The notes under the pieces are model-generated. The model was not told where the DNA came from. It made no database searches and worked only from the letters and a program-made list of their open reading frames with translations. This document shows positions 2,571 to 58,856 of a DNA stretch of 64,000 bases, one piece after another. The DNA is taken from NCBI GenBank assembly GCA_963667625.1, contig OY763921.1, positions 802,241 to 866,240 on the forward strand, given 5' to 3'. The DNA comes from Thermodesulfobacteriota bacterium. Lineage in GTDB: Bacteria; Desulfobacterota_D; UBA1144; Nemesobacterales; Nemesobacteraceae. A program made the translations under genes and the position numbers. Each line of letters opens with the position of its first letter. The stretch's first letter is position 1.

Positions 2571-2762
2571 ATGACATATATAGACGGTTTCGGGAAAGCG
2601 GTTCCGACTGCAAACAAGCAGAAATTCATCGACCATACCAAATTAGCCGGCAGCCTGATTAAGGAACTCGGCGCGACCCGCATTCTTGAATGCTGGGGTG
2701 ACGACGTGCCAGACGGCAAGCGGGTGATCTATGGCGGGTTACAGACATTGAGGTGTGGATAG
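2571..2762 (+). pseudogene. Truncated DUF1428-like ORF (63 aa, versus about 115-120 aa in full-length members)
   Basis: The N-terminus MTYIDGFGKAVPTANKQKF...ILECWGDDVPDGK matches the DUF1428 N-terminal pattern (xYVDGFVxxVP...ECxGDDVPxGK), but the ORF stops prematurely. There is a strong RBS, aaaggag. Recognised from memory of the family. Confidence 0.35.
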
Positions 2763-2858
2763 ATGCCCGAGAAAAATACGGGGCGGGGTGGTTAACGAAT
2801 CGGTAAGAATCGGAGTAAATGAAGCTAATTGATACTAACTATCAGGAGGATTTACAAT

Positions 2859-3323
2859 ATGGAATTCAAACTACTTGAATGGAGTGTAACAGGACTAATT
2901 CAAGGTATACCCCTAGCATTACTTGTTGCAGCAGCTCATAAGGTTGCTCTCCATCGGAGAAAAGAAGATCAAAAAGAAGCTCTTCGTGAAATTATCTCTG
3001 AGAGCGTGAGATTGATTATGACTGTGGGAGACAATGATCCATTCGGTTCAGAAAAACTCTGGAGTCGTGCTCGAAAAAGAGTTTATGATGAAATGTATAA
3101 GAAGGTTCATTTTTTGCTGGATCATAAAATGACTGAGCTTGATTACGAGGATGAAGTTAGAATCAGAGAGGCATTTGCTTCCTTTAAAGATAATCTGGCT
3201 TTGTTTGAAATTGATTCATTTCCATCTCTTGAGATTTACTACCATGGACTCATTAAGAAGTTGAGAAGAGTTGAATGGTTGGGAATTGAGGAACCTGACA
3301 AACCACTTCCTTTTTATGACTAG
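2859..3323 (+). CDS. Hypothetical protein with an N-terminal transmembrane helix (AT-rich orphan)
   Basis: ORF with AGGAGG 9 nt upstream of ATG 2859. No recognisable domain. AT-rich codon usage unlike the core genes. Confidence 0.45.
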   Translation: MEFKLLEWSVTGLIQGIPLALLVAAAHKVALHRRKEDQKEALREIISESVRLIMTVGDNDPFGSEKLWSRARKRVYDEMYKKVHFLLDHKMTELDYEDEVRIREAFASFKDNLALFEIDSFPSLEIYYHGLIKKLRRVEWLGIEEPDKPLPFYD

Positions 3324-3823
3324 TAATAAGTAAAGGCTCTGCCAGCAGAAAGCTCTCTTTTTGACATTGCGGTTACTCTCGTTTGAATCGGTCTTAGAGT
3401 ACTGGAAAGTACCACCGTAACGCAAGAATGAAATTGAAAACATGCGGAAGTCCGCGTGTGTTTTAGGGTAGTGCTGGCTTGCGGTTTCGCATATTACATC
3501 CTTGGCATCCAGTATATGCTGCCCAACCGCTGTCGGATATGTGGAAATATGAAAAGACGAACGGTAGTGGGACGGCCCTCGGCGCGGGAAAATACAAAAC
3601 GGTTACCGGGGAAAATGCCAGAGCCGCGGGGCAGAGGTTGAAAACCGCCGGGCCCGGCACAGAGGTTCCCGTGAGTTAGGCTTTACTCGGGAGCGAGTGG
3701 TTGAGAGAGTCCACGCTGGCGGAAGCACGTTTTGGCTTTCTTTAAGAGATAACTGGTAAGAGAGAGAAAGGCTATGGTCGGGGAAGCAAACAAGGGAAAG
3801 CTTGTAACAATTTGCTACAAATG

Positions 3824-4525: not shown

Positions 4526-4840
4526 TGTACATGACTCCTAGAAACGAACGAACAGGGACCCTGTCAGCGTTCTGGCCGCGTGGGGGGTAAGAGCGGAGAG
4601 ACTCTGGCGGGGCGTGGAGCTTGTCCAGGCGGCTGTCAGTTGAAACCCTTGAGGCCCTGGGAAGGATTGTAGAAGCGGAACTTTCGGCCAAGCTGTTTCC
4701 CGTAAGTATCAGATGGCAGGAACTAAGGGCGTCAGACCTTCAAACGAGGGCATGTTCCGTGGATTCCCTAGTAAAGGTCGATGTGGAAAAAGGAAAAGCA
4801 ATGGAGATAGCGGGTCTTTCGGTATAAAGTTAAAATGTCT

Positions 4841-5578
4841 TTAGTCATTCTCTTTTCCGTTGCCTGGAAAGGGGGTCCCTAGGTTGCTCCCGCTTCCCGG
4901 GGCTTTTTCTTTACAGTGGCAAAACCTAAGGAATCGTCGGCAAAATCCGAAAAAGCTGTATAGAGGAACTTCTTCTTCTAACATTTCTAAAATAGATTTA
5001 ATTGATCTTGTAAGGGATTTGTGATTCTGGATTAGTTTTAGAGCAGATTCCCCAAGGTTAACATAGAGGCTAGAATGCATTCCCGCTCCTTTTAAATCCA
5101 AAAACGAACTATATTGCTTCCTGTATTCTTCATGCTTATTTACAAAAATCTGTAAAGACATATAAATACTCACTATTTCACTTCGCAGGTCTGAGTTCTT
5201 AATCTGACCGATGAGATTTGCATTTGAACGATAAACGATCGCATAATCTTTAGGCATCTGTAACGGGCCCGTAAAAAAAAGGGGAGGATCATACTGATTT
5301 GGACTACTCTTTTTAAAGTCCTTCCACTTCTCTTTTTCATACTGCGAGATAAGTTGCTTATAGACTGTATTAAGTTCTGCGCAAATCCCCTCTAAGACAC
5401 CTACAATTCTCTGGCCTCGACGTCTATTATCCGAAGCCATCTGAAATACATACGTCACAAAAGCACCCACAAAAGCACCCACAAGAGCAGCTGTAATAGT
5501 GCCCACAATAACGGCCGTAGTAGCGTCCTTAGTTATTAACTCATTGAACCATGTTATTAAGCCATCAATCAAACCCAT
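4841..5578 (-). CDS. Hypothetical membrane-anchored protein, 245 aa (N-terminal TM helix AVIVGTITAALVGAFVGAFVTYVF)
   Basis: Long AT-rich ORF with a predicted single N-terminal TM segment and a soluble C-terminal domain without recognisable motifs. Confidence 0.45.
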   Translation of the reverse strand: MGLIDGLITWFNELITKDATTAVIVGTITAALVGAFVGAFVTYVFQMASDNRRRGQRIVGVLEGICAELNTVYKQLISQYEKEKWKDFKKSSPNQYDPPLFFTGPLQMPKDYAIVYRSNANLIGQIKNSDLRSEIVSIYMSLQIFVNKHEEYRKQYSSFLDLKGAGMHSSLYVNLGESALKLIQNHKSLTRSIKSILEMLEEEVPLYSFFGFCRRFLRFCHCKEKAPGSGSNLGTPFPGNGKEND

Positions 5579-5695
5579 AAACTTTTCTCCTTATTATTTC
5601 TTATATCAAGCTGGTTCTATTGTGGGATACAAAAGGGTATTTCCTTCCTTGCTCCCCCGGAAAACCTTTTGTTTTCAGGCAGTTATAAATTTATA

Positions 5696-5787
5696 TGGCG
5701 GAGAGAGTGGGATTCGAACCCACGAGGGAGCGTAAACCCCCTACACGCTTTCCAGGCGTGCACCTTCGGCCACTCGGTCATCTCTCC
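5696..5787 (-). tRNA. tRNA-Ser (anticodon GGA), type II with long variable arm, CCA encoded
   Basis: The minus-strand sequence GGAGAGATGACCGAGTGG...CACGCCTGGAAAGCGTG...GTGGGTTCGAATCCCACTCTCTCCGCCA folds as acceptor GGAGAGA/TCTCTCC. The anticodon loop is CTGGAAA. Confidence 0.85.
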
Positions 5788-7925: not shown

Positions 7926-8129
7926 TTAATTCTTTACTACTACGTTGGTTGCGGTGGGTCCTTTTTTACCTTGAGTGATCTCAAAGCTTACTTCGTCACC
8001 CTCATTGAGAGTTTTGTAGCCATCGCCCTCAATAGCGGAGTAATGAACAAAAACATCATCCTGCACTTCGTTGGATGTTATAAATCCATAGCCTTTGGAG
8101 CTATTAAACCATTTTACAGTTCCCTGCAT
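7926..8129 (-). CDS. cspA: Cold-shock protein (CspA family), copy 1
   Basis: [17 protein letters not shown]...VFVHYSAI carries the RNP1 (KGYGFI) and RNP2 (VFVHY) motifs. Confidence 0.9.
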
Positions 8130-8163
8130 TGTAATACCTACCTCTTAAATTAATGTTTGCGGG

Positions 8164-8192
8164 ATTATCCCACACCTATATCACTTTGTCAA
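8164..8192 (-). promoter_or_regulatory. Sigma70-type promoter for csp copy 1: TTGACA - 17 bp - GATAAT
   Basis: The minus strand reads gtTTGACAaagtgatataggtgtggGATAATccc, about 34 nt upstream of the ATG. The RBS aagaggtagg follows. Confidence 0.5.
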
Positions 8193-8287
8193 ACTGTGCT
8201 TCCTCCGTCTCCAGAAAAAATTCTGGATGCGGAGGAAAACATACAGTAGTTCTCAAAGCGTTTCGCGGTATACCTGCGTGCGTATCA

Positions 8288-8306
8288 AATCCGCGCAGAG
8301 CGGATT
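8288..8306 (-). terminator. Candidate intrinsic terminator of csp copy 2 (stem AATCCGC/GCGGATT, 5-nt loop) followed by TTTGAT
   Basis: The hairpin starts 2 nt after the copy-2 stop codon. A degenerate copy of the same hairpin lies at about 8667-8688. Confidence 0.4.
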
Positions 8307-8307
8307 C

Positions 8308-8508
8308 TTAAGCAGGCACAACGTTGGTTGCGGTGGGTCCTTTTTTACCTTGAGTGATCTCAAAGCTTACTTCGTCACCCTCATTGAGAGTTTTGTAGCC
8401 ATCGCCCTCAATAGCGGAGTAATGAACAAAAACATCATCCTGTACTTCGTTGGATGTTATAAATCCATAGCCTTTGGAGCTATTAAACCATTTTACAGTT
8501 CCCTGCAT
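8308..8508 (-). CDS. cspA: Cold-shock protein (CspA family), copy 2 (tandem duplicate)
   Basis: 66 aa, identical to copy 1 except for the last residues (NVVPA versus NVVVKN). The DNA is nearly identical over the CDS. Confidence 0.9.
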
Positions 8509-8544
8509 TATAATACCTACCTCTAGAAATTTAATATCCGCAGG

Positions 8545-8573
8545 ATTATCTCGGACCTATATTGTTTTGTCAA
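8545..8573 (-). promoter_or_regulatory. Sigma70-type promoter for csp copy 2: TTGACA - 17 bp - GATAAT
   Basis: Same architecture as for copy 1. The minus strand reads TTGACAaaacaatataggtccgaGATAAT. Confidence 0.45.
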
Positions 8574-8706
8574 ACAAAATTTTTCCTTCTCCAGAAAAAA
8601 TTCTGGGTTAGAGGGAAACTATATAGTGGTTCTCAGAATTTTTCACAGTATAATTACGTGCATCCCAAATCCGCGCAAAGTGGATTCTTAAGTAGGTATA
8701 AAATCA

Positions 8707-9261
8707 ATGGAAGATAGAAAAAGAAAGAGAATCTATATTTTCTGCATAGTGCTGTTTCTGCTCGGAGGGGGGCTTTTCTTTTATAACGTGGTGAAAAGCT
8801 TCACCGGCCTTGGCTCAACGCTTAGCGAATACACTTTTCCGGGAAGCCACTCAATCCGGCTTGAGAAAAAGGGGCTTTATTCGATCTACCACCAGTATGA
8901 AAGCGCTTTTGACGAAGCAAAGACAAGCGGGGACTCCGTCGGGGAGGGCTCGATAGTCGTTTACCTGAGAAAAGCTTCCGACGCGGAAAACGTGGAACTC
9001 AAGGTGCCCGATTCTCAGAAAAGATACAGTTACATGGGAAAGAGGGGAGTGAAGATATTTGAGTTTGAAAACCCCGGGCCGACAGCTTACTTGATCGAAT
9101 CTTTCTCAAGTCCCACTTCGCAACTCTCCCAGTACACCTTGGTTCTTGAGCGCGGGTTCGAGATAACAAGGCTTAAAGGAATACTTATCTCCCAGGCGTT
9201 TTTGCTTGTCCCGACCCTTTTCGCGATAATACTTTTCATGCGCACCTACATAAGGAGCTGA
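8707..9261 (+). CDS. Hypothetical membrane protein (TM helices at the N- and C-termini)
   Basis: ORF with the hydrophobic segments IYIFCIVLFLLGGGLFFY and LISQAFLLVPTLFAIILF. Confidence 0.5.
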   Translation: MEDRKRKRIYIFCIVLFLLGGGLFFYNVVKSFTGLGSTLSEYTFPGSHSIRLEKKGLYSIYHQYESAFDEAKTSGDSVGEGSIVVYLRKASDAENVELKVPDSQKRYSYMGKRGVKIFEFENPGPTAYLIESFSSPTSQLSQYTLVLERGFEITRLKGILISQAFLLVPTLFAIILFMRTYIRS

Positions 9262-16337: not shown

Positions 16338-16892
16338 CTATTTCCTGTCCCATAGACCGAGTTTCTCCAACATCCATCGCAGGTCGCTATCGTACAGGGC
16401 TGCGCGTCGAATATCTTCAATTCGGAAACGTTTGCGCAGATCTTCGGCGGATGCCGGTTTACTATAGTTCTGCCAAAGTCTCTGCAGATTCCGTTTGGCT
16501 TCATCCGCTGTTGGAAACTGCTTTTCCCGACCGGTGTGGAGTCTTAGGAGCAGCCCCTCAAAATTCGGTTTCAGGTAAACCAGTTTCAGGTTTTCCGAAT
16601 TCGCTTTTGGTTCAGGATCACGGCCAGACTGTATGTCCTGTTGAAGCCGGTCGGAATCGAGCAGTATCAGCCCGCTTGAGAATTTACCTCTGCTCTGGGT
16701 GCGTTTGCGATACTCATAAACTGCGTGTTCGGTGATTGTAAGACTGTCTCCGCCATTACTGACAGTTATGTCGAAGTGAAAGCTAACACCTTGTTCCTCG
16801 CAGAGGATTCTCAGCCACTTTGCGAGTGAACGTTCACTTTCGCCCTCTGCACCGACAAATATGCGTTTTCGTTTAGGATGTCGCCGGACCAT
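16338..16892 (-). CDS. RloB-like (PF13707) TOPRIM/OLD-nuclease-like protein, AbiLii-like
   Basis: The N-terminus KRKRIFVGAEGESERS matches the RloB consensus (basic stretch, then ILIVCEGEKTE). A DxD is present in LILLDSDRL. The gene lies 3 bp downstream of the ATPase gene. Confidence 0.7.
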   Translation of the reverse strand: MVRRHPKRKRIFVGAEGESERSLAKWLRILCEEQGVSFHFDITVSNGGDSLTITEHAVYEYRKRTQSRGKFSSGLILLDSDRLQQDIQSGRDPEPKANSENLKLVYLKPNFEGLLLRLHTGREKQFPTADEAKRNLQRLWQNYSKPASAEDLRKRFRIEDIRRAALYDSDLRWMLEKLGLWDRK

Positions 16893-16895
16893 CTG

Positions 16896-18107
16896 TCAGC
16901 CGAAAGTGGGCAATCCTCCCAAGGAGCCGCTGCGGTACTGTTTCTGAAGGCTTCCGCCGCGTCGCAGACCTTGGACGTTGCGTAACCCGTATGCGCGCGT
17001 AACGCCGCCGAGATCCTTCTCGACTATGTACACTTCTTCCTTTTCCAGGTCGTCAAGTATGGCCGGGTTATGTAACGAGCAGATCAACTGGGCATTGTTC
17101 GGATTGGTTTCTTTTCTTCGGAACCAGTTGAGGATCTCCAGCACGAGTTCCGTGTGAAAGTCGGAGTCAAGCGAATCCATGATTGCCAGGCCTCCTGTTT
17201 CGAGAACATAGTTAATCAGAGGGAATATGCGTGCCAGATTGCGCGTACCTGCTGACTCAGCCTCAAGTACGACAGGTACGTCCAGCCCCTGATGTTTGAA
17301 AATCATCATCCATTGGGCATCCGAAATTTGTGATATATCCAGGTATTCAATTCCAAGGTCAAAACGTTGCAGCTTTTCGGAAATTTTGTTCACAAGTTCG
17401 GGATTCTCTCTATATGCGCGAATTACCGCATCCGTGTCTGGACGCCACGGGTCGGCGCCCGCAACATTGGTTGATATGTTACGCAGGTCCTGAGCCAATT
17501 TGGGAAAGGGTTCCACCCCCATTCTGTCAAAAGCCGAGATTGCCGAAGCTTCAGACGGAACGGCAGACAGGCGATTGTCACTTGGGCTTACCTTCAACTC
17601 CCTTGCCACATAGATCGGCTTGCCTGGTTCTCTCTCAAGGAGGCGCCGGGAGCGACCCTTGGGAAAGGAATAAATAGATTCGTATTTGACGCCGGGATTT
17701 GCGGCGTTTAAACCGTTCCTGTGAACCTCAAGAACATATCGGTAAAGAGAACCTGTATCACCTATGTTGGGACCAAACCACTTCGTGTCAAATTCCAGAC
17801 CGATTCTAGTAGGCCGGGTTATCATTTCCTGCTCTAGAAACGGGATAAATGACTTGACCGTATTAGAGCCCGAATCATAATAGGAATTTGCGGCGAAGGA
17901 CATGGTTGCGACCAAGGAACGCAGCAGGGTTGTCTTTCCCGAACCGTTGGGTCCGAACATAGCGATTACGCTTGGAAGGCGAATTTCCGGCTGATATGGA
18001 TTCCTCCGGAAACAATCTAATTCAGGGGTTGTGCCGGGGATGCGGAAATCAAGCGATATTTCTTCCCTGACGGATTGGAAATTGGATACCTGAAATTTAT
18101 GTATCAT
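16896..18107 (-). CDS. AAA_21/ABC-type ATPase, AbiLi-like (also OLD/PARIS-AriA-like); track ORF extends to 18218 but the Met at 18107 (MIHKFQVSNFQS...) is the likely start
   Basis: Walker A FGPNGSGKTTLLRSL. The typical AAA_21 N-terminus has the shape I..L.I.NF.S. A D-rich Walker B region is present (LAIMDSLDSDFH). Confidence 0.7.
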   Translation of the reverse strand: MIHKFQVSNFQSVREEISLDFRIPGTTPELDCFRRNPYQPEIRLPSVIAMFGPNGSGKTTLLRSLVATMSFAANSYYDSGSNTVKSFIPFLEQEMITRPTRIGLEFDTKWFGPNIGDTGSLYRYVLEVHRNGLNAANPGVKYESIYSFPKGRSRRLLEREPGKPIYVARELKVSPSDNRLSAVPSEASAISAFDRMGVEPFPKLAQDLRNISTNVAGADPWRPDTDAVIRAYRENPELVNKISEKLQRFDLGIEYLDISQISDAQWMMIFKHQGLDVPVVLEAESAGTRNLARIFPLINYVLETGGLAIMDSLDSDFHTELVLEILNWFRRKETNPNNAQLICSLHNPAILDDLEKEEVYIVEKDLGGVTRAYGLRNVQGLRRGGSLQKQYRSGSLGGLPTFG

Positions 18108-18384
18108 AAAGCTATCTCTACAAATATTTGTTATATAGAAATGATAATACCCTAAAACGAAGCAGTCAAGAATAGTTTTTAGCAAAAAAATATTCTGTGT
18201 TTCTTGCTGCTTTGACAAACAGGTTCAGTCGTATTGGAGGAGAAAAGATCTAGGTCGCGATTTTACGGGCAGGTTAAATTCTCGCATAACGGTTTTCGGC
18301 TGGATGATCAATGGAAGCAATGGTTGCTGAGCAAGAGTTGGTAATTTGCGCGGATAATTTATAATAGACGGAAGGATAGAGTTA

Positions 18385-49809: not shown

Positions 49810-50460
49810 ATGTCCATGGCCTCTAAGATACCCTACATGACGTCGACAGGATTGATTCCGAAGATATTGGAGAAAATTCAAAATGCGAGGCGGCCTGAAC
49901 GGTTCACCCAAGACTTCCTAGGAACAAAGCTCGGGCACAGCGGGGGCAGTGCACGAGCTATTATACCGTTACTAAAACGTATGGGATTTCTCGGGTCAGA
50001 TGGTGTTCCAACATTTCTATACGATCAATTCCGTAATGTCGAGACTCAAGGTTTCGCTGTTGCTGAAGGCATGAAGAATGCATTCAGTGAGCTTTTTGAC
50101 CGCAATGAATATATCTACGAAGTGTCTCGTGAAAAGTTAACAGGACAAGTAGTTGAGATCACTGGAGCAACTAAGAACGATAGAAGTACCACAGCTGTCG
50201 TCGGAACCTTTTTAGCATTGAAAGAGCTAGCAGATTTTGAGTACGAGGAGCCGGAGAATCCACTTCCTGAACCAAAATCAGAAGTGCCCCCTTTACCACA
50301 GCTTTCGAATAATGGTGAAAATGTGTCTCCGATTGGCAATAGAGATAACATTGAACTGAGAGTTGGGTATACAATCAATCTTAATCTTCCAGAAACCAAT
50401 GACCCCGAGGTTTTCACAGCTATTTTCAAAGCTCTTAGGGAAAACCTATTGAAAGACTGA
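49810..50460 (+). CDS. Hypothetical protein, 216 aa (DUF5343-like by memory); first gene of a coupled two-gene cassette in an AT-rich insert
   Basis: AT-rich ORF. Its stop TGA overlaps the ATG of the next gene (TGATG). The family call is tentative. Confidence 0.45.
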   Translation: MSMASKIPYMTSTGLIPKILEKIQNARRPERFTQDFLGTKLGHSGGSARAIIPLLKRMGFLGSDGVPTFLYDQFRNVETQGFAVAEGMKNAFSELFDRNEYIYEVSREKLTGQVVEITGATKNDRSTTAVVGTFLALKELADFEYEEPENPLPEPKSEVPPLPQLSNNGENVSPIGNRDNIELRVGYTINLNLPETNDPEVFTAIFKALRENLLKD

Positions 50461-51041
50461 TGCGTGCAGAAGAAGCGATTAAATTATTTGGGTTAAACAA
50501 TTTGACTATCGAGTCAAACATTCGACAGATAGAAAGGAAGTACGATATCAACCTTGGTCACAAGAAGGATAAGGAACAAAGAACAGATCAAACATATTAT
50601 CCTCAATTTGCCGAGCGTCTTCGAGCTGAAGCGTCTCGTATGTCGGCAAATTATACAATTTTCTACTGTCTTGAGAACAGTATCAGAGAATTAATTGTTC
50701 AACGGCTTGAAGAAGAACACGGCACTAACTGGTGGGACACGGCCGTACCAAAAGTCGTTCGTAGCAATGCTGAGAAAAATCGAGAGAAAGAACTATCATC
50801 AGGTGTTACTCCCCGTTCAACAGAGCTAATAGATTTCACAAATTTTGGGGAGCTGGGGGAAATCATTAAGGCTAATTGGGACATTTTTGGTGATATGTTT
50901 CGCGATGTTCGAGCGGTCGAAAAGGTTCTGGCAACGCTTAACACATTGCGTGCGCCCATAGCACACTGCAAAACACTCGCAGAGGATGAGGAATTACGAC
51001 TGCATCTTGGCCTGCGCGACTGGTTTCGCCAGATGGAATAA
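50460..51041 (+). CDS. Swt1-like HEPN-domain protein (putative RNase), 193 aa
   Basis: Rx4H motif in LNTLRAPIAHCK, embedded in a predicted all-alpha protein. Translationally coupled to the upstream gene. Confidence 0.5.
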   Translation: MRAEEAIKLFGLNNLTIESNIRQIERKYDINLGHKKDKEQRTDQTYYPQFAERLRAEASRMSANYTIFYCLENSIRELIVQRLEEEHGTNWWDTAVPKVVRSNAEKNREKELSSGVTPRSTELIDFTNFGELGEIIKANWDIFGDMFRDVRAVEKVLATLNTLRAPIAHCKTLAEDEELRLHLGLRDWFRQME

Positions 51042-52550: not shown

Positions 52551-55127
<2,577 letters not shown>

Positions 55128-55166
55128 CAACTCACTTTCTCCACTTCAGCCCCATCTACGATAGTT

Positions 55167-55802
55167 TTATGCTTCCCATAACTTTTCTAACTCGGGAGAT
55201 TCACCGATTTCGTTATTCGGGTCGTAGAACTTAGAAGACTTTAATATCCAAATAGACTTATTTATAGATGCCTCGATTTTCTTTTCTTTCTCTTGCTGTT
55301 CATAATACAGGCTCGCATACGAGATGTTCTTGCTGTCCAGTGCTAAGAGCTTTATTGTTTCTAATACATCAATACAAATATTAGGGATACCTTCGAGAGA
55401 TATTGACCAAGAAAGATTAGGCTGAAAATGTTCGAAATTATTTCTAAAGTGACGATGTAACCAGAGTATGGAGTTCTTTTGATTAAGAGTCAATTCAATC
55501 GGAAGAGAATGATAAAAACGCTTTACCCCAATACAGAGTTTTAAGGCAGTTATTAGATCGACAACCCCACCTTTTTTTCTTTGGACAATGCCTGGATTTG
55601 TCCCAGCCGCAACAGTTAATGCGAAAGTATAAAGCGAATGCTGCAAGCAGATAATTACCCATTTCCAATGGAATGCTCCCCAACAGATTCCATCATCTTG
55701 AAGTAGTCTTGTATGTTTCTCAGCTCTACAAATATATTCTTCAGCTCTGAGAAGAGAATCTACGGCATTCTCTTTGTCGTTGATTCTTAAGTAATTTCCC
55801 AT
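55167..55802 (-). CDS. AT-rich orphan protein, 211 aa, with an RNxxxH (HEPN/Abi-like) motif
   Basis: The motif WLHRHFRNNFEHF occurs in the middle of a predicted alpha-helical protein. Very AT-rich relative to neighbours. Confidence 0.4.
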   Translation of the reverse strand: MGNYLRINDKENAVDSLLRAEEYICRAEKHTRLLQDDGICWGAFHWKWVIICLQHSLYTFALTVAAGTNPGIVQRKKGGVVDLITALKLCIGVKRFYHSLPIELTLNQKNSILWLHRHFRNNFEHFQPNLSWSISLEGIPNICIDVLETIKLLALDSKNISYASLYYEQQEKEKKIEASINKSIWILKSSKFYDPNNEIGESPELEKLWEA

Positions 55803-55882
55803 TTCGGTTTGCCTTTCCTATATATGGTTGTCGGGGTTGATGTGTAAATCCCTGAAAAACAAGATTATGAACCAGTGGATTT

Positions 55883-56932
55883 CTAAAGAATTCCCGAGAC
55901 GATAAGAAAACTTATGAGGAGCAGATTGGCTACTGCTAGGGGGAAAAGCCTCTTCCAGCCGAGACTCATTACCTGATCGTACCTGAACCGTGGCAAAGTC
56001 CATCTTACCCAGATGAACAGAAAGAGTAAGAAAAGGACTTTGCCGATAAAAACGGCAGGCGGCAGATACCAATGCGTGTTGATATCAATGCCGAACCACC
56101 CTCCGATTGGTAAGGGATACCAACCACCCAAAAACAAACAAGTTATCATGCACGAAGCAACTATCATGTGAGTATATTCAGCCATGAAGAACATTGCAAA
56201 TTTCATACTGCTGTATTCGGTGTGGTAGCCGGCGACTATCTCGGGCTCGGCTTCCGGCATATCAAACGGAAGCCTGTTGGTTTCGGCAAACGCGGAAACT
56301 ACGAAAACCACAAAGCCTATAAAGGACGGGATCATAAACCACATTTTCTCCTGCGCTTCGATTATGTCCCCGAGGCGAAGCGAACCCGTTATGGCGATTA
56401 CCCCCAGTATGGATAGACCCAGAGCGAGTTCATAGCTTATCATCTGCGCGCCCGCCCGGAGGCCTCCCAGGAGTGAGTACTTGCTGTTGGAACCCCATCC
56501 GCCGAGCACGACGCCGTATACGCTGAGCGAACTTATTCCGAGCACGTAGAGAAGGCCGACATTTATGTCGGCTATCTGGAGCCTTATGAATACGGGATCC
56601 TGAAGAAATCCGAAGAGATCCGTGTGAAACCCCTTTCCTATTGGAATCACGGCGAGGGCCGCGAGGGCCGTGACGAGTGCGAACGCCGGGGCCATTATAT
56701 ACATGGTCTTGTTTGCATTTTTCGGAATTATGTCTTCTTTGAAGATGAACTTGATGCCATCGGCGAGAGGCTGGAGCAGTCCCGAAGGTCCGACCCTATT
56801 CGGTCCGTAGCGGTCCTGCATGAAGGCGCTTAACCTTCTTTCTGCGAAAGTCAGATAGGCGACAACCGTCAGGACGACGAAAAAGACAAGCGCTATCTTT
56901 GCGACAGCTATTGATATTAGAAGTGGAGTCAT
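55883..56932 (-). CDS. nuoH: NADH-quinone oxidoreductase subunit H
   Basis: NuoH pattern (RLSAFMQDRYGPNRVGPSGLLQPLADGIKF). Confidence 0.9.
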   Translation of the reverse strand: MTPLLISIAVAKIALVFFVVLTVVAYLTFAERRLSAFMQDRYGPNRVGPSGLLQPLADGIKFIFKEDIIPKNANKTMYIMAPAFALVTALAALAVIPIGKGFHTDLFGFLQDPVFIRLQIADINVGLLYVLGISSLSVYGVVLGGWGSNSKYSLLGGLRAGAQMISYELALGLSILGVIAITGSLRLGDIIEAQEKMWFMIPSFIGFVVFVVSAFAETNRLPFDMPEAEPEIVAGYHTEYSSMKFAMFFMAEYTHMIVASCMITCLFLGGWYPLPIGGWFGIDINTHWYLPPAVFIGKVLFLLFLFIWVRWTLPRFRYDQVMSLGWKRLFPLAVANLLLISFLIVSGIL

Positions 56933-58536
56933 CTGCCTGCGCCGTGTTCGAGAACTTTCCCGACGGTACCTATTCTGTCGTAGCTGATCCCCCCGTATCC
57001 GGGGATATTGAGGCTTATGTCATCCATCACGTCCGACGCGGAGCCGTAGCTGAACAGGGCTTTATCGAGCCGCTCCCCGATCATGCACAGTATTTCCCAT
57101 CCGGGCTTAGCTTTTCCGGGAGGAGGGATGGCTTTTCCTATTTTCTGAACCCGCCCGGCATCGTTTGTGAAAGTTCCGTCTTTTTCATAGGGGCTTGCCG
57201 CCGGAAGTATTACGTGCGCGTATCTAGCGGTCTCGGTTAGTTTATAGTCGATAACGGCGAGAAAGCCGATTTTCTCAAGAGCCCGGGAAAGAGCGTATTT
57301 CTCGTGGCCTGAAACCATCTCAAACAGGTCAGCTTCGATGACGACCAGCGTATTGATCCTGCCGGCAAGCAGCGAGTCGATCGTCGTTTTCGTATCGTTT
57401 CCGTTTGCCTGCATCATGAAATTCCTTGCTCCCGCGCTGTTTGGATATGGATCGTTGCTTACGAGATCGAATTTTTTCTCTATTTTCTCGGTTCCCGTGG
57501 CGCAGATCGCCGTGCAGTCTCCAAGGGTAGATGAAAGCTTCGCCACAAGAAACATTTCCTCGTTTGTAAGCCTGGCTGATCCCGCAATTGCGCAGGCGCC
57601 CGCTCCGCCCGACTTTATTCCCGAGAGCCTAGCCCCGACGCTGTTAACAGCGTTTTCCCAGGAAGCTATCTCGTAGTCCTTATCGCTTTTCATTATGGGA
57701 TCCTTAAGCCTGGTCGACTCCTGGACCCCCCTGTAGTCGAATCTTCCCCTGTCGCATATCCAGTGCCCGTTAACTTCCTGGTTTATTCTCGGGCGTATGC
57801 GGGAGACCTCTCCTTTTCTCGGATCGACGCCCACGGTAATGTTGCACCCGGTGCTGCAGAGAGAACACACGGAGTCTGTGAATTGCATGTACCAGACCCT
57901 CTCTTCATGGAGAGTGTTTTTGGGGAGCAAGGCCCCGACCGGGCAGATGTCAATCACGTTTCCGGCAAGCTCGTTATCAAGCGTCTTCCCGGGGAAAACG
58001 GAGATTTTCTTCCGAAATCCTCTTCCTGTGGTTCCAAGTTCATGGGTTTTTGTCACCTCATCCGTGAAACGCACGCACCTGGTGCACATGATGCACCTGT
58101 TGGCGTCGTACATTATGCGGTCGCTCAGGTAGCTTTTCTGCCTTACCTTCTTGTTCTCGGGACCGCCGACCCTGCTGTAGCCGGGACCGTGAGTGAAAGT
58201 GGTCATCTGGAGCGGACATTCCCCGCCCTTGTCGCATATGGGACAGTCAAGCGGGTGATTTATCAGCGTGAACTCGACTGCCGCCTTTCTGGCTTCAAAA
58301 GCTTTTTCGGTGTCTGTTTTGACCACGAGGCCGTCTCTTACGGTCGTGTTGCATGCGGGAAGCACCTTGGGAACGCCTTCCACTTCCACGAGGCACTGCC
58401 TGCACTGGGCGACTACGCTTAGCGAAGGGTGATAGCAGAAGTGAGGGATTTCTATCCCGGCCACCGCGGCGGCCTGGATGACGTTCAGTCCGTCGTCCAC
58501 ATCAAGTTCGATTCCGTCGATGGTTATCTTGGGCAT
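56929..58536 (-). CDS. nuoG: NADH-quinone oxidoreductase subunit G (short form, 535 aa)
   Basis: N-terminal 2Fe-2S (C..C..C), 4Fe-4S clusters (HPLDCPICDKGGEC) and a truncated molybdopterin-oxidoreductase-like domain. Confidence 0.8.
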   Translation of the reverse strand: MPKITIDGIELDVDDGLNVIQAAAVAGIEIPHFCYHPSLSVVAQCRQCLVEVEGVPKVLPACNTTVRDGLVVKTDTEKAFEARKAAVEFTLINHPLDCPICDKGGECPLQMTTFTHGPGYSRVGGPENKKVRQKSYLSDRIMYDANRCIMCTRCVRFTDEVTKTHELGTTGRGFRKKISVFPGKTLDNELAGNVIDICPVGALLPKNTLHEERVWYMQFTDSVCSLCSTGCNITVGVDPRKGEVSRIRPRINQEVNGHWICDRGRFDYRGVQESTRLKDPIMKSDKDYEIASWENAVNSVGARLSGIKSGGAGACAIAGSARLTNEEMFLVAKLSSTLGDCTAICATGTEKIEKKFDLVSNDPYPNSAGARNFMMQANGNDTKTTIDSLLAGRINTLVVIEADLFEMVSGHEKYALSRALEKIGFLAVIDYKLTETARYAHVILPAASPYEKDGTFTNDAGRVQKIGKAIPPPGKAKPGWEILCMIGERLDKALFSYGSASDVMDDISLNIPGYGGISYDRIGTVGKVLEHGAGR

Positions 58537-58599
58537 AGAGGGGGCTCAAGGGAAAAAACGATTAGGCTAAATACTATCAGAGAAAGTCCTTTTGACAAG

Positions 58600-58815
58600 T
58601 CAGGCGTTCTCGTTCTTTTCGGGGGCCTGGAACTTGGTTTTCTCGTCAAAATCGTCTTCAAACTCTATGGTTTTCTTAAGATCATCCTTGGTTCTCTGGA
58701 GTTCTCTTATCCCCCTGCCAAGAGTCCTTGCGACTTTTGGCAGCTCTTTGGGCCCCAAAACTATGAGGGCGATGAAGAGTATTATCAGTAATTCAGCCGT
58801 GCCAAGTCCGAACAT
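58600..58815 (-). CDS. tatA: Twin-arginine translocase subunit TatA/E
   Basis: MFGLGTAELLIILFIALIVLGPKELP followed by an amphipathic helix. The internal Met is the chosen start. Confidence 0.8.
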   Translation of the reverse strand: MFGLGTAELLIILFIALIVLGPKELPKVARTLGRGIRELQRTKDDLKKTIEFEDDFDEKTKFQAPEKNENA

Positions 58816-58856
58816 GGTTTTTCCCCCTAGCATCTAATATAACCAAAACCGGGGAA

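Follow-up and report, generated by a model that had tools for sequence, protein, structure and literature searches.

A 64,000-nucleotide stretch of DNA (the window) carries, between nuoH and gyrB, a gene for a helical protein that represents an uncatalogued new family, probably of the known HEPN superfamily, and is located in a defence hotspot. Taking together sequence conservation, structural models and analogy with characterized HEPN RNases, we favour, at a probability of roughly 55%, a solitary HEPN-fold RNase that serves as an effector in defence or conflict. The HEPN fold and the active-site geometry, which rest on the models and on the conserved motif, are well supported and in our view highly probable. 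The coordinates of the gene and its surroundings, the contents of related loci and the conserved residues are listed in Table 1.

Table 1. Features of the window, related loci and conserved residues (A2, alignment described in the text).
Feature	Position	Strand	Remark
HEPN-like ORF, unnamed family	55167..55802	-	211 aa, ATG start (ORF list)
Shine-Dalgarno-like AGGAAAGG (GGAAAGG)	55812..55818	-	9 nt 5' of ATG, read from the sequence
Codons R120-N-N-F-E-H125, Rx4H motif	55428..55445	-	predicted RNase active site
Codons W46-K47-W48	55659..55667	-	family signature, start of helix 2
Variable slot	55132..55882	.	here HEPN-like gene only; blastn homology break
nuoH	55883..56932	-	conserved left anchor of slot; Pfam NADHdh 7e-125
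gyrB	52641..55127	+	conserved right anchor, convergent with nuoH; tblastn to relatives
Slot of L010			empty, 118 bp between nuoH and gyrB stops
Slot of L016			HNH_2 endonuclease, PADLOC HNH 2.7e-26
Slot of L009			HNH_2 and Mrr-type enzyme (mREase_IV / PDC-S02)
Slot of L008			HNH_2 and AAA_14/DUF4143 (PDC-S01, 1.6e-91)
Slot of L013			methyltransferase
Slot of L011			121-aa cupin-like ORF, judged from its sequence; no family match
Locus L001			OLD/AAA_15, DpnII-MboI, reverse transcriptase within 8 kb
Loci L002/L003			GmrSD, AAA_15, TOPRIM, UvrD, DUF4238, KAP NTPase within 8 kb
Locus L004			methyltransferase-HNH fusion, FRG, transposase within 8 kb
Locus L005			McrBC, Mrr within 8 kb
Locus L006			GmrSD_N within 8 kb
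Locus L007			DUF4238, AAA_13, nSTAND3 within 8 kb
Locus L088 (distant subfamily)			defence island: MjaI R-M, NACHT, GmrSD
Locus L089 (distant subfamily)			purely metabolic neighbours, no defence gene nearby
Locus L090 (distant subfamily)			adjoins phage-like genes
D15	codon 55758-55760	-	91/92 in A2
W46			84/92 in A2
K47			91/92 in A2
W48			90/92 in A2
Y58			90/92 in A2
R120			90/92 in A2
Position 121			81 N + 9 D = 90/92 in A2
F123			81/92 in A2
H125			90/92 in A2
P128			83/92 in A2

Predicted fold and family conservation

The AlphaFold2 model, calculated from an alignment of close homologues, is confident and all-helical (pLDDT 86.4, pTM 0.88), with helices at residues 9-32, 41-68, 106-124, 139-155 and 169-188 and an insert at 69-105 that contains a short helix. 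The R120-H125 motif closes helix 106-124, at its C-terminal end and the start of the next loop, which is the position described in a survey of HEPN domains (PMC3710099). According to the same survey, an insert between helices 2 and 3 is common, the residue following the motif arginine is typically Asn, Asp or His, and a conserved acid in helix 2, often as Ex3[KR], occurs in many families but is optional (PMC3710099). The window protein possesses both the helix 2-3 insert and an Asn after the arginine. None of the tallied positions of A2 in this region (46-48, 54, 57 and 58) is a conserved helix-2 acid, the near-invariant acid being D15 in helix 1. A search of the PDB with Foldseek ranked HepT first with a probability of 0.84 and an E-value of 0.45, which is non-significant alone. 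A second model, of the P0204 subfamily (33% identical), was built from a non-overlapping alignment and reached a pLDDT of 90.4, again matching 4nqf (9.3), HepT (8.7), 2hsb (8.5), 1ufb and sacsin. The HEPN core around the motif that the earlier note had suggested looking for appears in the model as a HEPN-like bundle.

At the sequence level, scans of the window protein against Pfam, NCBIfam and PADLOC (E<=1) and against PHROGs (E<=0.1) were all empty. Searching the PDB sequences with a profile yielded no meaningful hit, and hhalign against a Swt1-HEPN profile made from the other HEPN gene of the window returned a probability of 0.1%. Scans of 92 and 52 family members against Pfam and PADLOC yielded sporadic matches of single members only. 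One A2 member matches PADLOC DUF3644 (7.2e-5) and one PADLOC PDC-S19 (3.8e-5 and 2.7e-4), both significant even allowing for 92 queries, and single members match Pfam HEPN_Cthe2314 (0.05) and HEPN_Apea (0.06); the 10 most divergent members match neither DUF3644 nor PDC-S19 in PADLOC. Judged from these searches, strict HEPN homology of the window protein lacks a sequence-level bridge to the curated HEPN families. A membrane protein is ruled out, with a maximal Kyte-Doolittle mean over 19 residues of 1.52.

The gene is not the orphan it was first taken for. A word-indexed search found 37 homologues with 25-100% identity to the window protein, and an exhaustive phmmer search, run over 1.84 billion cluster representatives, brought up 315 clusters with E<=1e-3, 82 of them with E<=1e-10; a profile search contributed 257 further proteins. 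As counted by these searches, a family of at least 315 clusters, clustered at 50% identity, is missed by Pfam, NCBIfam, PADLOC and PHROGs, and wherever the source gives its members a name it is always 'hypothetical protein'. Homologues occur in MAGs of Humimicrobiia, KSB1, Desulfatibia, Deltaproteobacteria, Babeliaceae and Ignavibacteriaceae, and the family also spans Dadabacteria, Ignavibacteria, Dependentiae, Desulfobacterota and some viral contigs. Three IMG/VR contigs encode distant members of 27-34% identity with WKW and RNxF[IV]H signatures (L173 396-857, L174 457-948 and L175 4665-5144), and tblastn against phage and plasmid collections found no homologue. The homologues from the cluster and profile searches carry no Pfam domain except in two fusions, P0253 (347 aa) and P0262 (303 aa), where an N-terminal 'probable addiction module antidote' domain (PF21716 dnstrm_HI1420, 2e-17) precedes the HEPN-like domain. 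This arrangement hints at toxin-antitoxin-like regulation in some lineages.

Residue conservation was tallied in A2, an alignment of 92 diverse members with 26-58% identity to the window protein. The R-N-x-x-x-H motif noticed earlier lies in the peptide WLHRHFRNNFEHF, with R120 encoded by 55445-55443 and H125 by 55430-55428, and its arginine, Asn/Asp and histidine are each kept in 90 of the 92 members. Typical residue frequencies lead us to estimate the chance occurrence in a protein of such length at about 1% for R-N-x-x-x-H and about 20% for plain R-x4-H. Since R-x4-H is so frequent by chance, the motif on its own is weak evidence; the weight comes from its conservation across the aligned family, not from its mere presence.

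A variable slot between nuoH and gyrB

The GC content of the HEPN-like ORF is 0.371, lower than in any other 636-bp window of the 64 kb (mean 0.504, standard deviation 0.047), versus 0.503 for nuoH and 0.504 for gyrB, which bears out the AT-rich minus-strand gene described in the earlier note. GC below 0.40 is also seen at about 2700-3500, 4750-5750 and 8100-8800 of the window. The non-coding flanks are short, 80 bp to the nuoH stop and 39 bp from the stop of the gene itself to gyrB. Transcriptional read-through from nuoGH into the gene is possible, as no terminator-like site is predicted in the 80 bp that follow the nuoH stop; the sole sigma-70-like match sits within the HEPN-like ORF. At 0.21-0.24, the dN/dS ratio of the gene (Nei-Gojobori) lies above the values for the tails of nuoH (0.12) and gyrB (0.06). 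The gene is therefore real and functional, evolving faster than its flanks under purifying selection.

Comparison by blastn with the relatives L008 and L016 (~92%) revealed that homology ends at the nuoH stop (55883) and restarts at 55131, next to the gyrB stop at 55127. The resulting variable segment nearly coincides with the interval 55130-55882 noted earlier, and the placement between nuoH and gyrB is as described there. The content of the slot differs among relatives, so the gene is no fixed presence at this position. The nuoH/gyrB slot is a lineage-variable, recombination-prone hotspot whose cargo consists mostly of defence genes. The two closest homologues (86% and 81% identical; L091 and L092) occupy the same slot on two metagenome contigs collinear with the window, to which they are 86-88% identical in nucleotide sequence. 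For the nuoH flank, dS between L091 and L016 is 0.105 versus 0.256 between L091 and the window, and for the gyrB flank the values are 0.35 and 0.67. Because the flanks of L091, which holds the HEPN-like gene, are nearer to those of L016, which holds HNH_2, than to those of the window, the cassettes of the slot were swapped in situ. Neither convincing direct or inverted repeats nor a target-site duplication were found at the slot, and no tRNA or Rfam element lies in or near it. The small foreign insertion proposed at first is supported in that the segment is both lineage-variable and compositionally foreign. Lying between two housekeeping genes that are essential and convergent, in an uncultured phylum, this simple defence hotspot could be mined for more cargo.

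The earlier note had also suggested that the insertion displaced or interrupted the nuo locus, an idea that the relatives overturn. NuoH is 91-95% identical at the amino acid level in L008, L009 and L016, with hisS-MFS-tatA-nuoG kept upstream; GyrB identity by tblastn is 86-94% in L009 and L016 and 69-71% in L010, L011 and L013. The gyrB gene is always convergent with nuoH and is followed by dcd, for which no match was returned in L016. The order hisS-MFS-tatA-nuoG-nuoH, convergent with gyrB-dcd, is kept in Dadabacteria/Thermodesulfobacteriota MAGs whose NuoH identity is 70-95% (tblastn). In the window, nuoG is preceded by tatA, an MFS transporter gene and hisS instead of nuoA-F. The nuoG-nuoH pair is isolated in the window (55883-58833, minus strand) and in L008-L016, with no other nuo gene in the 64 kb. 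In four distant phyla nuoH is found within a long same-strand cluster consistent with a complete nuo operon, in which matches identified nuoG and nuoH only, and the proteins of these clusters have no homologue in the 64 kb besides nuoG and nuoH. An interrupted nuo operon is ruled out, as close relatives share nuoG-nuoH convergent with gyrB, the slot of L010 is empty and the 64 kb contain no nuoI-N homologue. Since the relatives share this layout and one of them has an empty slot, the stand-alone nuoGH pair is, as read from the alignments, a lineage trait older than the insertion. The truncated nuo cluster should thus be read as a trait of the lineage rather than as insertion damage, which corrects a tempting misreading.

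Other features, among them candidate defence genes, were noticed in the window and in one relative. A candidate two-gene defence pair lies on the plus strand at 49810-51041, about 4 kb from the HEPN-like gene, with a GC content of 0.43-0.44. Its first gene encodes a DUF5343 protein (Pfam 3e-47; PADLOC PDC-M34A 2e-50) and overlaps by one base the second, which encodes a Swt1-like HEPN protein (Pfam 2e-13; PDC-M34B 3e-42). On the minus strand at 16338-18218, a gene for a 440-aa AAA_21 ATPase (PADLOC AbiLi 7e-58) is followed by a 184-aa ORF without library match; the two are possibly an AbiL-type two-gene abortive-infection system. In the more distant relative L015 (9944-12840), about 3 kb downstream of nuoH, a 597-aa ORF is followed by a repeat-peptide array with a pattern like that of CRISPR direct repeats.

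Genomic neighbourhoods and proposed function

Defence genes lie within 8 kb in six of the seven distinct long-contig loci of the subfamily of the window protein, and in L088. The defence-island association is therefore strong for this subfamily, where GmrSD, McrBC, Mrr, OLD/AAA_15, nSTAND and restriction-modification genes are found, but it is not uniform across the family. The check proposed earlier, whether homologues occur in defence islands, comes out positive for this subfamily and for L088; no such setting is evident for L089 or among the genes closest to members of the larger distant subfamily, which include HypD, GDC-P, exonuclease VII and transporters.

The search for a partner covered 74 non-redundant loci, retrieved with an alignment (A4) tighter than the diverse A2, and the 430 neighbour proteins within 5 kb were clustered. 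Each neighbour family is present in at most 3 of the 74 loci, and a conserved partner or antitoxin is ruled out by this clustering. The 150 nearest neighbours match 136 Pfam families, many of them housekeeping, the commonest being TPR with 5 proteins. Small ORFs upstream seem to be spurious and bear no resemblance to the antidote domain of the HI1420 type. The HEPN-like gene is therefore a solitary module, without conserved partner or antitoxin.

Based on the models, the conserved residues and other HEPN RNases, we propose how such a module might work. The protein, of about 200 residues, is predicted to fold as a HEPN domain, an up-down bundle of four helices in which an insert separates helices 2 and 3, followed by one or two extra C-terminal helices. 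The R-N-x-F-x-H motif at the end of helix 3 would form the metal-independent endoribonuclease site typical of HEPN toxins, in which H125 may serve as the general base while R120 and N121 stabilize the transition state, as inferred from HEPN RNases (PMC3710099). Similar to other HEPN RNases, the protein would require dimerization for activity, with the homodimer uniting two Rx4H motifs. The protein would be kept inactive in the uninfected cell; upon infection or stress it would cleave cellular and/or phage RNA, leading to growth arrest, abortive infection or toxin-like behaviour. RNase activity, dimerization, trigger and defence phenotype are all inferred here. Against a defence effector stand the want of an antitoxin or regulator that would explain how a free RNase is tolerated, the distant subfamily, which often lies beside housekeeping genes and in L089 has no defence gene nearby, and the protein itself, which has neither a sequence link to curated HEPN families nor a conserved helix-2 acid.

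A bolder version of the defence effector is more tentative, and we rate it somewhat below even odds. It would be the first example of an uncatalogued single-gene immune or toxin system with its own signature that both senses infection and cleaves RNA, without antitoxin, partner or fused sensor, distributed over many uncultured phyla and a few viruses and occurring in Dadabacteria as a cassette that alternates with HNH, Mrr and PDC-S01 at nuoH/gyrB. How a partner-less HEPN RNase is silenced is a mechanistic question that this minimal protein could help to address.

Alternatively, the gene may encode a HEPN RNase with no anti-phage role, either a selfish toxin or addiction element or a stress or RNA-turnover nuclease, which spread horizontally and persists alone. 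We regard this as unlikely, though it is the best of the alternatives. It would account for the heterogeneous and often housekeeping neighbours of the distant subfamily, including the metabolic surroundings of L089, for the two members fused to an HI1420-type antidote domain, and for the vertical inheritance of the gene in the slot, where purifying selection has acted over about 12-16% nucleotide divergence. However, no cognate antitoxin adjoins the gene in the 74 loci, the subfamily of the window protein resides in defence islands, and the same slot holds recognized defence genes in sister genomes.

Two loci raise a different question. In L001 and L006, the HEPN-like gene is accompanied by a 457-aa gene (L001 8639-10012, L006 2530-3903) that either abuts or overlaps its stop codon. 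The two 457-aa proteins are 79% identical and have no Pfam match, and phrog_18195 matches the copy tested, that of L001 (1.8e-30). By eye, the N-terminus of the 457-aa protein (…CDLIAVFDDHVFIFFDRES…) looks nuclease-like. The translational coupling, the similarity of the two partners and the PHROG match would fit a two-gene system in which the pair is the functional unit and the window copy an orphaned half. This is quite improbable, as the partner is present in only 2 of the 74 non-redundant loci, the window, L091 and L092 are without it, in the window 39 bp separate the stop codon from gyrB, and the solo gene is still under purifying selection with a dN/dS of about 0.22. A non-catalytic bundle, whether a ligand-binding or scaffold HEPN such as the substrate-binding HEPN of nucleotidyltransferases or a non-HEPN protein using R, N and H for binding or structure, would agree with the missing profile-level likeness to known HEPN families but is equally improbable, given that HEPN domains losing RNase function have typically lost Rx4-6H (PMC3710099), whereas 98% of the members of this family retain R, N/D and H at the canonical position, and that no nucleotidyltransferase gene adjoins in any locus.

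The preferred reading is thus still that of a solitary HEPN-fold RNase with a role in defence or conflict, for which a HEPN fold is predicted, the motif is conserved and the slot varies among relatives. If confirmed, it would add a sizeable unnamed family to the HEPN RNase repertoire and to the single-gene defence candidates.

Comparison with known HEPN systems

Abi_2 proteins (AbiD/AbiF-like) are predicted single-gene HEPN RNases with an R-N-x-x-x-H type motif like that of the window protein, and they are larger. The earlier note had proposed a possible Abi-type HEPN effector; the HEPN-like fold and the canonical position of the motif largely uphold this HEPN/Abi-like idea, whereas membership of Abi_2/AbiD/F does not stand, as the window protein matches no Abi or HEPN model of Pfam or PADLOC at E<=1. 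For Abi_2 (PF07751) in particular, membership was rejected, there being no Pfam match at E<=1 for the window protein and no Abi_2 among the 25 families listed for 92 members.

The HepT/DUF86 toxins of type VII HEPN-MNT systems (e.g. Shewanella SO_3166, PDB 5YEP) are among the closest known systems. They differ in having an adjacent MNT antitoxin gene, whereas the window gene has none and its flanks of 80 and 39 bp leave no room for one; nor does MNT appear in the list of families of the 150 nearest neighbours. Within the window, the Swt1-like HEPN of the PDC-M34 pair (50460-51041, about 4 kb away) shares with the HEPN-like gene the Rx4H motif, a low-GC patch and a candidate defence role. However, it is paired with a conserved DUF5343 protein and clearly covered by models of both Pfam and PADLOC, and the profile comparison between the two, at 0.1%, sets the window family apart from it.

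AbiV (PDB 9BJ5) and DUF3644/HEC-08 (the EC042_2821 family) are single-gene HEPN defence proteins, and the window protein matches the model of neither. AbiV is typically without the canonical histidine and uses an alternative one (PMC3710099). DUF3644 is a HEPN family contained in the HEC-08 system, whose defence requires the histidine of the motif (bioRxiv 10.1101/2024.01.29.577857). The zinc-ribbon domains at the C-terminus of HEC-08 have no counterpart in the window family. Judged from the alignment, the latter is set apart from both AbiV and DUF3644/HEC-08 by a signature of its own, consisting of D15, WKW, Y58 and RNxFxH[FY]xP.
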